NCBI GenBank assembly: GCA_964016885.1
Contig: OZ024747.1
Span: 10,974,001 to 11,038,000 of the forward strand
DNA from: Eledone cirrhosa
Lineage: Eukaryota
Direction of reading: 5' to 3'
Length of the DNA: 64,000 bases
Part shown: positions 141 to 62,445 of the stretch, in pieces
Numbering within the stretch: the first letter of the stretch is position 1
Layout of the letters: each line of letters opens with the position of its first letter
Notes under the pieces: model-generated
The model's database searches: none
What the model saw: only the letters and a program-made list of their open reading frames with translations
What the model was told of the DNA's origin: nothing
Program-made: the position numbers and the translations under genes

Positions 141-340
141 ACGAAGGAAATGTGGTAAGGAACCAGATGGACCATAACGCACCAAAGTACTCAATACTTA
201 GGGTAGTAGAGTGTAGAGTGGGTAATAGGAACGAGTAGGACCCCGACGGCTGAGCTCAAGCCGTTTCGACTAAGATTTTAGTCCAGAATTAGCCGTCGAA
301 ACGGCTTGAGCTCAGCCGTCGAGGTCCTACTCGTTCCTAT
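141..340. mobile_element. Fold-back PLE-like terminal element in (TA)n, 46-bp arms (225-270/295-340), partial hammerhead (family A)
   Basis: Inverted arms with one mismatch and a 24-nt loop; arm reads GAAAC-GGCT..AGCC-GTC (hammerhead helix III plus GUC site); unpaired tail 141-224 homologous to 62122-62198. Confidence 0.75.
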
Positions 341-1554
341 ATATATATATATATATATATATATATATATATATATATATATATATATATATATATATAT
401 ATATATATATATATAAACACACTAGGTGTATCAGAAAAGTAACAGGTTTTAGTGTGTTATATGAGCTGTAAGTGGGGTAGAGATTAGCGGGTTGCTTCTC
501 TGTAAAACCTGCAACATTATGGCAACCAATGATGTTGACCTGTTCTTCATTTTGGATACCTGTCACTGTTGTTCAGAAAGTAGAATTGGTCCAGTGCCAG
601 ACCCTTCTTCACTTAAAGAGGATTCAAAGACGGACATCACTTGATCAAAACGACTTTCACGTTTGTTGCAGGAGCATGGCCACTTGGTTTTTTGGGGTTT
701 TTTTTTTTAGGAATTCCATTAGATACCAATTTCCAAGGTGTTCTAACCCCCTCAGCTCTTTCTCGGGTGTTTGTCTCCCCACCACCACCACCCTTCGGTT
801 TCGTAACCTCGTCTCCTCTGGCTATCCACTAAGAACTTCCGACCGAATCAGATACGAAACATTTTAACATGTCATGCCCATCTATCCAGGGCCACACGAC
901 ATTGTCTGACAGCATCAGCTTGCATCCACACGTGACCAGTGAATTATCCTCCTCCTCCTCCTCCTTCTTCTTCTTCTTCTTCTTCTTGAGAGGGTGGTAG
1001 GGTGAAAGAGTCCTCAAAACACTCCTTCCAACTGATCCTGTCAGACGCAACTGTCTCCAACTCATCCAGCAGATCATTACACTCTATATAGAATTTCAAC
1101 CATTAGAATGCCACCATTGTAAACAAAGGAATTTAGTCATTAACTGAGACAATGGGCTTTTATTATTTTAATTACAAATCCTCCCCCGCCCCCACCTTGT
1201 ATTATTCACGTCTTATCCCCCACCTTCCTCATCTTTCCTCTGCACCAATCTACATCTCTAAATCTAAATTTAAAACATTACTATTGATTAATCTACTGTA
1301 GATTTAATTAACTCAGCACCCTTTAATTTATATAAATATGATCGCAGTTTAATTAACTCCCTTCTAATCATATATTAATACGTTAATTTTATAGCGGTTT
1401 TAACTGGTTTATTAACTTAGTTTTTATTGCTTTTATAATATTTGCCTGAAAATTTGATTATACTATCGACTTATATATATATATATATATATATATATAT
1501 ATATATATATATATATATATATATATATATATATATATGTATGTATGTATGTAT

Positions 1555-1760
1555 GAGATGTCAACATGAATGGACCTGTTATTTTTTCCAATTCCATCCC
1601 GCCCGTCCCCTCAATCTATCTTATTTCTCATTCTTTCTTCTGATGAAGGACTAGCGTCCGAAACGTTAAGACCCTCTTCCTGCTGTATCAACAAACGTTA
1701 ACCTAATTTATCCCTTCCATATACTTTACCGATTGTGTGGTTATTTCTGTTTACCTTTTA
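1555..1760 (+). mobile_element. PLE pseudo-LTR-like fragment in microsatellite (family B)
   Basis: Near-identical copy at 59101-59314; contains a hammerhead motif; flanked by (TA)n/(TATG)n and (CA)n. Confidence 0.7.
1636..1671 (+). ncRNA. Minimal type I hammerhead ribozyme
   Basis: TCTT-CTGATGA-a-GGAC tagc GTCC-GAAAC-GTT-AAGA: helix I TCTT/AAGA, helix II GGAC/GTCC, loopless palindromic helix III (AACGTT). Confidence 0.75.
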
Positions 1761-2554
1761 CACACACACACACACACAAACACACACGCACATATATATA
1801 TATATATATATATATATATATATGTGTGTGTGTGTGTGTGTGTGTGTGTGTGTGTGTGTGTAAAAGGTAAACAGAAATAACCACACAATCGGTAAAGTAT
1901 ATGGAAGGGATATATATATATATATATATATATATATATATATATATATATATATATATATATATATATATATATATATATGTATATATATATATATATA
2001 TATATATATATATATATATATATATATATATATATACATATATATATATGTGTGTGTATGTATGTATATATATATATATATATATATATATATATATATA
2101 TATATATATATATATATCCCACTCTCAAGAGCGTGAACCTAATAAACCTTTATTTGTCTGCCTCTCTGTTTTGTTCCCGTCTAAATTTGCACTATATATA
2201 TATATATATATATATATATATATATATATATATATACATATACATATATATATATACATATACATATATATATATATATATATATACATATACATATATA
2301 TATATATATATATATATATATATATATATATATATATATATATATACATACATATATATATATACATACATATATATATATACATACATATATATATATA
2401 TATATATATATATATATATATATATATATAAACGTTAGAATATGTGTAATAAGGCCAAGACAATGCAGATATGGACATAGAAAAAAAAGAATGCAATAGT
2501 GAAAGATATTGATGAGAATTCGTCTTTCACCTTGAATTTATTTAAATGTCCTTA

Positions 2555-2587
2555 ATTTTCGAGATAATATCTCTTCTTCGGAGGGAA
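2555..2587 (-). ncRNA. Degenerate hammerhead-like motif (CCGAAGA core)
   Basis: Minus strand: cct-CCGAAGA-a-GAGAT att ATCTC-GAAAATTA-agg; unique island between (TA)n tracts. Confidence 0.35.
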
Positions 2588-2817
2588 GTAAAAGTCTCCC
2601 ATATATATATATATATACATACATACATATATATATATGTATGTATATATATATATATATATATACATACATATATATATATATATATATATATATATAT
2701 ATATATATATATATATATATGCATATATATATATATCTGTGTGTGTGATATTTAGTTCTTTAATAACATCATTATATTTCAGGTAATCATTGATCGAGAT
2801 CGTTTGTTTACTTAAAC

Positions 2818-2919
2818 AATAATTGTTTCTACTTTAGGCACAAGGCCAGCAATTTCCCAGTGCATTACTGGTACTTTATTTTATCGACCCCGTAAGGATG
2901 AAAGGCAAAGTCAACCTCG
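2818..2919 (-). mobile_element. tRNA-derived SINE, 3' part
   Basis: Matches the family consensus seen about 20 times in the window (ggcacaaggccagcaatt...ctggtactttattttatcgaccccgtaaggatgaaaggcaaag). Confidence 0.85.
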
Positions 2920-3524
2920 TTAATAATATTATTGAATTTGTCGTAGTTAGTAAACAATTTAACGATCATCATACTACTCTATTTTCTTCACTTTGTCTTC
3001 TACTCTCTTTACTCCTTCCTCTTTTTTTTTCCCTTATTCTTCTTTCCTTCAAACTTTATTCATACAAATCATCTCTTTTTTCATTTCTCCTCGGGGAAAC
3101 GCCTTCTCCATTCTGTCCGCCGGGGCTGTGGGTTGGCCCCATCGTGTACCAATACATTAGTTAAATACCATTCTTTCATCTGATATGTCACTTTCATTGT
3201 CACACGTCTCTGTTTTCAACGACAGCATTTCATTTTTTTATTTCCTACTACAATATTGAATATATTGTTTTCATGGCGATGTTATTTTGCGAAACCAGTC
3301 TGTTGCTTATAGAATATTGTTCTTAAGAAATATAATATACTCTACTTTACAAATGTATTGAGACCTTTCAATCACTCAATACATGGTGTATTATATTTAT
3401 TTAGCTGATAGCTACGCCCGTATCTTCAAGTTTCATGAATGTTCCACCAAACAGACGGCTATGTTGATTCGTAATGAAAAACATTCCTCTATCAAAGATG
3501 GCGTCAAGATGTTACTGCTTCATT

Positions 3525-60380: not shown

Positions 60381-61223
60381 TTAATTTTTACTTAAATGAT
60401 TCTAAACATTAAACATTAAACATTCCTTCTACGTTTACTTCAATAATTATTTACGTTGCAAATGGCGTCTCAGAAGAGTTGAATGTATTTGGCCAGAAAC
60501 TCAACTGAACGTCTGCTGTTGATGTAGGTCATTGGTAGAACAGTAGCCAACGATCAAGACATATGGCGTCACATATTGTCAAGTAAAGTGGACCTCGCAC
60601 CCAATATTAACGAGGCCACTCTCTCTCTCTCTCTCTCTCTCTCTCTCTCTCTCTCTCTCTCTCTCTCTCTCTCTCTCTTGCTCTCTCTCTCACTCTCCCC
60701 CTCTCTCTCTCTGCCGCCATTGGCCAGACAGTAGCAGCTGCTATACAACACGTCTTCCCCTAATAAACTACACAAATGACCACTACCTTCCTTAGAGACG
60801 ACAACCACCACCATGACGATGATAATGATAATGATGATGATGATGATGATAATGATGATGACGTTTACGATGATGATGATGATGATGATGATGATGATGT
60901 TGACGACGACGACGATGATGATGATGATGATGATGGTGGTGGTGACGACGACGATGATGATGATATGGTGGTGGTGGTGGTGACGCTTGCAATAACGATG
61001 ACGACGACGATATTGATGACGACGATAACGATGGCGGCGGCGACGATGAGATGATACTGTTGATATGATATTACAGTTTGCTGTTATTTAACCAGTTTTC
61101 TTTTTATAAAACCCAGGGCATCCCTAATCAAAAAGATCGGCTGATCGGCCTATGATATATATTTATATATATATATATTTATATATATATATATATATAT
61201 ATATATATATATATATATATATA

Positions 61224-61612
61224 TGTAGGAGCTGAGTTTTATTGTAGTACAATAAAGCAATGCAGATATCGGATAAGAAGCACTCTACAGTTTGTAGGAC
61301 TGGAGTATACATAATAATATATAAGATCAAAAGATGGTTAAAAGAGTTCCATGTATTTTATTATGCGCATTTCAAAAACAAATATCATCATGCAATAACA
61401 TTTGCGTTTTCGTCAGATAAAATAGGGAGACATGATATGAAGGTTAAAACACACTTGTGAATAGTGCAGTTTTAAATCAACATATGTGTTTTAACCTTCA
61501 TATCATGTCTCACTATTTTATCTGACGAAAACGCAAATGTTATTGCATGATGATATTTGTTTTTGAAATGCGCATAATAAAATACATGGAACTCTTTTGA
61601 TCTTATATATTA
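61224..61612. mobile_element. Fold-back non-coding copy of the family F PLE terminus with two hammerheads (61356-61422 minus; 61516-61582 plus)
   Basis: Arms of about 130-140 bp; homologous to 42835-43005 and 40409-40506; CTGACGA...GAAATGCGCATA. Confidence 0.9.
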
Positions 61613-61685
61613 TATATATATATATATATATATGTATATATATATATATATATATATATATGTAAGTATATGTATATATATATGT

Positions 61686-61873
61686 TATTCCGGGTTGAAT
61701 CGGAGGCAACCACAGTAAGTAAGGTACTCAATACATAGCAGAGTATAAATGTTTTAATATAGAAGAGCTTCTACAGGACTAGAACTGTTTCATTCGTGAG
61801 AAATCATCAGGGCTTCCTGATGATTTCTCACGAATGAAACAGTTCTAGTCCTGTAGAAGCTCTTCTATATTAA
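61686..61873. mobile_element. Fold-back element (family C), perfect 58-bp arms, hammerhead at 61812-61860 plus
   Basis: GCTTC-CTGATGA-tttc tcac gaat-GAAAC-AG ttctagtc CT-GTA-GAAGC; 4-nt loop. Confidence 0.85.
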
Positions 61874-62120
61874 TATATATATATATATATATATGCATAT
61901 ATATATATATATATATATATATATATATGCATATATATATATTGTTATACTTTGGGAGGGCCATGCTGCCAATAAAAATGCACACACACCTGTTGGTTTT
62001 CACTAATTTATAAACAACCATCCGGTTATCGAACCAACCAACCATTCAGCCAACCGGAAAATATAATAAATTGTAGTGAAAACCAACAGTGCGTGTGTTT
62101 TTATATATATATATATATAT

Positions 62121-62258
62121 AACGAAGGAGTTGTGGTAAAGAACCAGATGGACCATAACGCACCAGAGTACTCAATACTTAGAGTAGTAGAGTGGGTAAT
62201 AGGAAAATGTATGACCCCGACGGCAGAGCTCTGCCGTCGGGGTCATACATTTTCCTAT
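62121..62258. mobile_element. Fold-back element (family A), perfect 60-bp palindrome 62199-62258
   Basis: Centred on GAG|CTC; tail homologous to 141-224; TA-flanked. Confidence 0.85.
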
Positions 62259-62289
62259 ATATATATATATATATATATATATATATATG

Positions 62290-62445
62290 CAAAAGTTCTA
62301 TTTAAATTGTTGGGATACAACAAGCAAATATTTTTATAACTGATATAAAGCACTCGACAATAAAGCACTCGACGATATTAACAAATGGAAACTATATTTA
62401 TTTAAATATGGTTTTATAAATATAGTTTCCATTTGTTAATATCGT
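62290..62445. mobile_element. Fold-back element (family E), 30-bp arms
   Basis: 62372-62401/62416-62445; arm homologous to 40270-40304. Confidence 0.75.

Follow-up and report, generated by a model that had tools for sequence, protein, structure and literature searches.

A duplicated bulged hairpin beside the insertion ends of Hydra-clade Penelope-like elements in Eledone cirrhosa, a candidate signal for internal reverse transcription starts

Introduction

Penelope-like elements (PLEs) of the C-terminal endonuclease-positive (EN+) Hydra clade carry a hammerhead ribozyme in the pseudo-long terminal repeat (pLTR), insert into (TA)n targets and form partial tandems with an inverted 5'-truncated copy and a one-sided tail (Craig et al. 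2021, PMC8557442). In the anole Poseidon element PAc, two internal reverse transcriptase (RT) starts bound the tail, the RT needs RNA 3' of these starts, both DNA strands are cut and extended, and a dimer is predicted (Frangieh et al. 2024, PMC11167929). Here, we report a small bulged hairpin, duplicated in the 5' untranslated region (UTR) of Hydra-clade PLEs, that was found from a 64,000-nucleotide stretch of Eledone cirrhosa DNA (assembly GCA_964016885.1, contig OZ024747.1, positions 10,974,001 to 11,038,000; the window), where fold-back elements of families A to F carry it or a variant of it. The hairpin is a real, conserved cis-element of a known retroelement clade and is apparently undescribed; each copy likely binds the element protein and sets one of two internal RT starts, within AU-rich sequence a few bases upstream of itself.

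The elements in the window share with the published Hydra clade its protein motifs, pLTR hammerhead, (TA)n targets, partial tandems, inverted truncated copy and one-sided tail, but the published tail is 30-40 bp and the tails here are about 55-90 nt, bounded by the twin hairpin. The main text of PMC8557442 does not contain the word "hairpin"; the twin hairpin is present, unremarked, in the consensi of its File S7. PAc differs in belonging to another clade and in having both starts inside the open reading frame (ORF), in one AC-rich stem-loop (PMC11167929). The 3' UTR stem-loop of stringent-type long and short interspersed elements (LINEs and SINEs) is likewise small, bulged, recognised by the element's own RT and shared with non-autonomous partners, but, as summarised in PMC5135761, it is single, is situated 5' of where priming occurs and becomes part of the copy. 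In the present elements, the hairpin is duplicated and found downstream of each end, on the 3' side of a proposed internal start, with the adjacent copy left uncopied. Non-LTR (long terminal repeat) retrozymes share their form with a 299-bp, seven-unit hammerhead tandem in this genome; their passages in PMC7229834 and bioRxiv 10.64898/2026.07.22.740005 name no mobilisation signal, and the tandem derivative here keeps both hairpins.

No description of the hairpin was found in the literature open to searching, which did not extend to subscription journals or to the notes of Repbase and Dfam. A preliminary description of the window, made from its letters alone, had proposed a tail signal that was not known to be described; for the hairpin this apparently stands, while the tail and its two-start origin were already described in PMC8557442 and PMC11167929. 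The elements and their tail are known, and the duplicated hairpin with its fixed offset to both ends is the new part.

Results

The preliminary description reported a conserved TNGAGYRC motif in the unpaired tails of otherwise unrelated fold-back families between positions 185 and 62375. Its strings were all recovered within 1 base of where they had been placed; the one at 43240 is a variant form outside the TNGAGYRC pattern. The bare motif is at chance level in the window (19 matches against 18.35 +/- 4.29 in dinucleotide shuffles), and its 14:5 strand split is uninformative because the elements insert in both orientations. Position was examined in a sample of 1.2 Mb, in 25 blocks of the same 3.0-Gb animal genome, picked irrespective of content. 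A fold-back search blind to the motif, run on this sample and the window, gave 213 fold-backs with usable flanks, of which 61 were asymmetric, with a microsatellite immediately at one end and a 40-140-nt tail at the other. The motif was on the outward strand of the tail in 36/61 and on the inward strand in 5/61 (two being the palindromic shadow of the same site, three a family with a one-base bulge). Across the 1.2 Mb, a microsatellite lay 30-80 nt downstream of 128 of the 319 motif matches, as against 13/155, 14/154, 5/147 and 16/228 for scrambled control motifs. The motif signal is positional, not numerical.

The motif, far from being unpaired, is base-paired within the tail as the 3' strand of a small bulged hairpin. 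The lower stem has 4 bp (RCUC with GAGY), the 3' side carries a 2-nt bulge whose first base is U, the upper stem is of 1-4 covarying bp, the loop is free in length and sequence, and an unpaired RCU follows. A complete 7-bp hairpin was found at 75 of the 128 tail-like matches and at 19 of the 191 others (1.2 Mb; p=7e-21); after shuffling of the upstream sequence, the mean was 9.0 and the maximum 18. Covariation was assessed among 38 host-genome family clusters, chance singletons included, with 3' strands swapped between families as the control. The upper stem pairs in 15/38 families (4.3 after swapping; p=5e-5) and in 11/16 families with at least two copies (3.8 after swapping). The basal pair of host families varies on both strands (A-U in 9, G-C in 4, G-U in 2), and in other organisms it is G-C in 49/52. 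Among 49 parsed hairpins from the 5' UTRs of other organisms, 32 open the upper stem with a C-G pair and 12 with U-A, and three upper pairs form in 25, against 7.1 after partner swapping; the bulge starts with U at 63 of 66 relaxed-match sites. A MAFFT alignment of eight hairpins was poor and was not used. Rfam 15 returned only microsatellite microRNA noise and one weak HH9 match for four loci, and nothing relevant among the best 150 of 343 matches for the window.

These structures bear on whether the motif is instead a DNA signal for the endonuclease, which we consider unlikely. Craig et al. ascribed the tail to endonuclease-mediated resolution (PMC8557442), and the Drosophila virilis endonuclease required the tail region for plasmid cleavage, as cited by Frangieh et al. 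(PMC11167929). The motif is also quasi-palindromic, and position data would look alike for RNA and DNA, with the comparison of G-U and A-C pairs (12 to 5) a weak discriminator. Set against this, both the G-U pairs and the sense-strand UUCG loops with a closing C-G pair (at 51602 and in block B73) are in keeping with RNA. The hairpin beside each end lies on the uncopied side and so is absent from that cDNA, and the anole ends in vitro are RT start sites (PMC11167929).

Family A copies have two discrete 3' ends, just before hairpin 1 (proximal, P) or about 90 nt later (distal, D). Copies that end just 5' of hairpin 1 have no tail, and those that end just 5' of hairpin 2 have one. Alignment of the 3' pLTR copy to the 5' copy in 27 loci left 19 informative (8 were cut by a contig end), some belonging to the same cluster. 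Fourteen of these end 1-11 nt 5' of a hairpin; 13 were called by script, and one, beside a variant hairpin, was read by eye. The end precedes hairpin 2 in 9 loci and hairpin 1 in 5; microhomology to TA blurs some ends. Because the ends of inserted copies fall a few bases short of one or the other hairpin, each hairpin likely directs an RT start.

A second hairpin just past the tail end had been predicted beforehand. It was found in family B at 304 places (none in the reversed control), beginning 4 nt after the tail end, and in family C at 51 places, in both cases followed by a Hydra-type frame; in family A, it lies about 7 nt past the tail end. Candidate hairpin-2 copies of families D and E (loci L293 and L294) proved to be local tail duplications, and candidate tandem units (L295 to L298) were not tandem units.

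The two ends are coupled. Among 51 fold-back pairs of five reference families, 41 had both ends classifiable; 38 of these have one proximal and one distal end (20.5 expected if independent; p=5e-9), 2 have two proximal ends and 1 has two distal ends. This bears on a second alternative, that the hairpin is a signal for cutting the RNA, or for forming its 3' end, a short way upstream, giving two RNA species whose 3' ends then serve ordinary target-primed reverse transcription. A downstream processing signal would be expected to leave ends at a constant, short distance 5' of a structured element, and family D, with one hairpin, may prime at the end of a UA repeat. We nevertheless regard processing as quite improbable, for two separate RNAs would yield independent ends, and the anole PLE starts internally regardless of the length of RNA 3' of the start (PMC11167929). 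In the window insertion at 40408-43004, the proximal arm is 2.5 kb and the distal arm about 0.1 kb; other loci (L032, L033 and L040) have the opposite imbalance or two long arms. Either arm may thus be the longer, which argues that each end is primed separately and that the proximal arm is not a copy of the distal arm; a snap-back origin of the short arm is ruled out on the same ground.

Beyond the host, a scan of metagenome contigs with a single protein found no relatives, but an alignment of 35 relatives recovered 89 loci from metagenome and genome-bin contigs, with 60 upstream windows, or 39 after dereplication. Viral contigs scanned held no Hydra-type elements. Some Hydra-type PLEs (L240-L251) sit in contigs binned with bacterial genomes, where they most probably reflect contamination by animal host DNA. 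The strict motif occurs twice in 24 of the 39 Hydra-type 5' UTR clusters, once in 7 and not at all in 8, several of the last being rearranged or having variants; a relaxed match gave 66 sites in 34/39. Where two motifs are present, they are 54-74 nt apart (median, 62 nt). The 5' UTR windows, 8.6 kb in all, held 55 motifs, and 71 kb of coding sequence held 7. In tandem units, the hammerhead is followed by AU-rich site P, then by hairpin 1, a spacer, AU-rich site D, hairpin 2 and the start codon, in that order. Overall, the two hairpins are separated by about 60-90 nt and lie shortly ahead of the protein gene in elements of many animals.

Published consensi of coral and sea-cucumber Hydra elements have the hairpin, as read by eye, at the unit boundary. 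By eye, Hydra-2_Amil and Hydra-2_Ajap end in the same hairpin, Hydra-1_Ajap starts with it twice, and it is a variant in Hydra-1_Crog, imperfect in Hydra-1_Amil and not evident in Hydra-1_Obim. Five motif 9-mers gave 4 matches at Hydra element boundaries; the Naiad and Chlamys consensi were rejected as carriers, with 3 scattered matches in files much larger than the Hydra file.

The position of the hairpin, 36-73 nt ahead of the aligned frame start in 28/31 clusters, would also be expected of a 5' UTR promoter or translation signal, the closeness of insertion ends then being due merely to pairing between AU-rich stretches in the region and the (TA)n target. AT content is 77% in the 12 nt preceding the hairpins and 64% in the 5' UTR windows, and the TA microhomology at some ends points the same way. 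We find this reading very improbable: a DNA promoter element has no need of covarying stems, both ends track the hairpin at an equal small offset though other AU-rich stretches are present, and the 299-bp non-coding tandem derivative retains both hairpins.

Elements in the window

The features of the window are as follows (positions of the window).

40504 to 43004, plus strand: 5'-truncated Hydra-clade PLE of family A, ending at the proximal site in (TA)n
40504-41922, plus strand: last 472 codons of the family A RT-GIY-YIG frame
42907, plus strand: hammerhead core in the family A 3' UTR, within 40504 to 43004
40408 to 40494, minus strand: inverted tail of the same family A insertion (distal end), which is family A 5' UTR
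40463-40490, minus strand: hairpin 1 of this inverted tail
61224 to 61611: family A fold-back, with tail 61224-61314 (minus), hairpin 1 at 61279-61306 (minus) and arms 61315-61611
61416 (minus) and 61522 (plus): hammerhead cores in the arms of this fold-back
139 to 340: family B fold-back, with tail 139-223 (minus), hairpin 1 within 186-219 and arms 224-340
62121 to 62258: family B fold-back, with tail 62121-62197, hairpin 1 at 62167-62193 (minus) and arms 62198-62258
32610 to 32636, minus strand: diverged family B-like hairpin 1 with one upper-stem mismatch, its tail interrupted by another repeat
62288 to 62445: family C fold-back, with arms 62371-62445 and tail 62288-62370
12716 to 12903: family D fold-back, with hairpin 1 at 12755-12777 (minus) in the tail and arms 12782-12903
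61683 to 61873: family D fold-back, with tail 61683-61752, hairpin 1 at 61723-61744 (minus) and arms 61753-61873 with hammerhead cores
25114 to 25320: family E fold-back, with arms 25114-25256, a right-hand tail and hairpin 1 at 25262-25285 (plus) with a G-C basal pair
45211 to 45508: family E fold-back, with arms 45211-45446 with hammerhead cores and hairpin 1 at 45451-45474 (plus)
43195 to 43756: family F fold-back, with arms 43328-43756, tail 43195-43327 and a variant hairpin near 43240
34946 to 35060, minus strand: solo tail of a multi-copy family between TA arrays, with a hairpin at 34993-35035, overlooked in the preliminary description
51591 to 51648, plus strand: solo island with an intact hairpin at 51591-51613 and a UUCG loop
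34031 to 34162, minus strand: degenerate island with the motif at 34117-34124 and an imperfect lower stem, of uncertain membership

In the family C copy (62288 to 62445), a 15-nt duplication accounts for the two motif matches (62350-62357 and 62365-62372), and the 5' strand of hairpin 1 has been lost. Two TA-flanked islands had been listed as further carriers: that at 51602 has an intact single hairpin, with no relative in the DNA searched, and that at 34114 is degenerate, with one distant relative.

The fold-back families, said to be unrelated, include paralogous PLEs with 43-56% protein identity. Families A, B, C and F are truncated ends of predicted autonomous Hydra-clade PLEs, in which the tail corresponds to the 5' UTR of the tandem unit that comes next, the sequence after the pLTR that runs up to the start codon. 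The full family A frame encodes an 821-codon RT-GIY-YIG protein, present in at least 150 copies that are 98-100% identical and with 70 relatives at E<=1e-30, and family B, whose autonomous frame and hairpin 2 lie elsewhere in the genome, has about 720 codons after the first Met; both families have intact frames. Families B (185 and 62165), C (62347) and F (43240; tail found upstream of a Hydra-type frame at G000:C4:300,039,000) lead into Hydra-type frames with 43%, about 56% and about 45% protein identity to family A, respectively.

Marks of Hydra-clade proteins are an RWK-like N-terminal motif, DKT, a CxCX5C linker and CxxC plus CxH without CCHH (PMC8557442). Families A and B have a single ORF with RT plus a GIY-YIG endonuclease at the C terminus (domains read from motifs; the truncated window frame had no Pfam match). 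Their translations show RW plus T or R in the N-terminal motif, DKT for DKG, the CxCX5C linker, and CxxC and CxH near the endonuclease end, with no CCHH. The (TA)n insertion, tandem and inverted copies and one-sided tail of the clade are all present, and hammerhead cores are predicted in pLTRs at 42907, 61416, 61522, 61810, 45308, 45355 and 25206.

By eye, the family B hammerhead core is of the U3-A8 type. U3-A8 in place of C3-G8 was read, again by eye, at four family B loci (L252, L257, L259 and L300) and in one other family (block B53, near G000:C7:11,083,000). Such hammerhead variants are known. The 299-bp tandem (L300; G000:C2:356029500-356033500) consists of seven units derived from family B with nearly all of the ORF deleted; it is retrozyme-like and retains the hammerhead, both hairpins and the first codons. 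The second hairpin of family F encloses about 110 nt with GT and AG borders (L162, about 9065-9325, minus strand; G000:C4:300,039,000), possibly a 5' UTR intron.

No read-through coding copy was found for families D (12754 and 61722) and E (25276 and 45465). They are placed with Hydra-clade PLEs only tentatively, by hairpin, hammerhead and architecture. Family D (12716-12903 and 61683-61873; L280, L284, L285 and L291) resembles a non-coding unit, about 400-600 bp long, whose start follows a (TA)n(TG)n run and which holds one hairpin, with far ends more scattered than those of family B.

Several other sequences in the window fall outside these families. The motif matches at 12545, 15559, 23947, 28929 and 52950 had no bulged hairpin in the scripted test. 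Fold-backs at 27653-27966 and 25635-25693 have one-sided tails without the motif, as do further families in the 1.2-Mb sample, perhaps of other PLE clades. The segment 52671-52978, the end of another young repeat adjoining TA/TACA arrays (32 matches in the DNA searched), fits the motif pattern with a hairpin that is unbulged and at the opposite polarity. An intact 1,236-codon RTE-like LINE frame (apurinic/apyrimidinic endonuclease and RT, with C-terminal C2H2 zinc fingers) lies at 8294-12004 on the minus strand. A SINE-like high-copy repeat of about 190 bp (86-95% identical) occurs at 4098-4283, 24122-24318, 29716-29906, 36109-36295, 39750-39936, 43810-44001 and 53935-54325. A tandem array of a 59-60-bp unit, about 96% identical, occupies 13496-15301.

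Discussion

The preliminary description proposed a shared cis-signal for RT binding, internal initiation or GIY-YIG nicking. RT binding or internal initiation remains the best reading, with strong positional support, and nicking of DNA fits less well; the signal itself is not a linear motif but a structured, duplicated hairpin. We propose that one read-through RNA would carry both hairpins, probably on a protein dimer, and that each hairpin would dock one RT immediately 3' of an AU-rich start. The GIY-YIG domain would cut both strands of the (TA)n target, one DNA end being primed at the proximal and the other at the distal site, and both cDNAs would stop early and be joined head to head. Such events would leave a fold-back with one tail, equal in length to the distance between the hairpins; the tail would contain hairpin 1, whereas hairpin 2 would never be copied. 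The two internal RT starts that bound the tail of the anole PLE are an in vitro precedent (PMC11167929).

A number of results weigh against this reading. The chief one, against a strict two-hairpin rule, is that pattern searches found no hairpin 2 in families D (914 exact tail ends) and E. Family D still has one proximal and one distal end in 8/8 fold-backs, so either a second hairpin is not strictly required or the master copies of D and E were missed. Five of the 19 informative loci have their ends at other places: one is a tandem read-through, another ends close to where its contig stops, and three are unexplained or divergent. Many hairpin-2 copies have only 1-2 upper pairs (one in 15/55 parsed, none in 5/55). 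Minimum-energy folding recovered both hairpins in 1/3 families tried, so the structure may need protein. The swap tests overstate independence because the dereplicated clusters remain related, the G-U to A-C ratio favours the RNA strand weakly, and a twin or duplicated recognition hairpin is not reported for PAc (PMC11167929).

The choice of RNA by PLEs, their one-sided tail and their inverted arms are questions decades old; two starts were known in vitro, but not what sets them. A 20-30-nt hairpin common to cnidarian, echinoderm and host elements, with a fixed offset to the ends, makes the question testable with short RNAs. It accounts for the commonest fold-back scars of this genome and can mark boundaries when Hydra elements, or non-coding derivatives of them, are annotated. 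The hairpin is also relevant to how telomerase-related RTs position an internal template. On a broader proposal our confidence is evenly divided: a protein dimer on two like hairpins of one RNA may prime both ends of a DNA break and act as a molecular ruler, the tail being the spacer between RT docking sites, and the hairpin may be a portable RT-start signal in any RNA, akin to the template-positioning elements of telomerase RNA.

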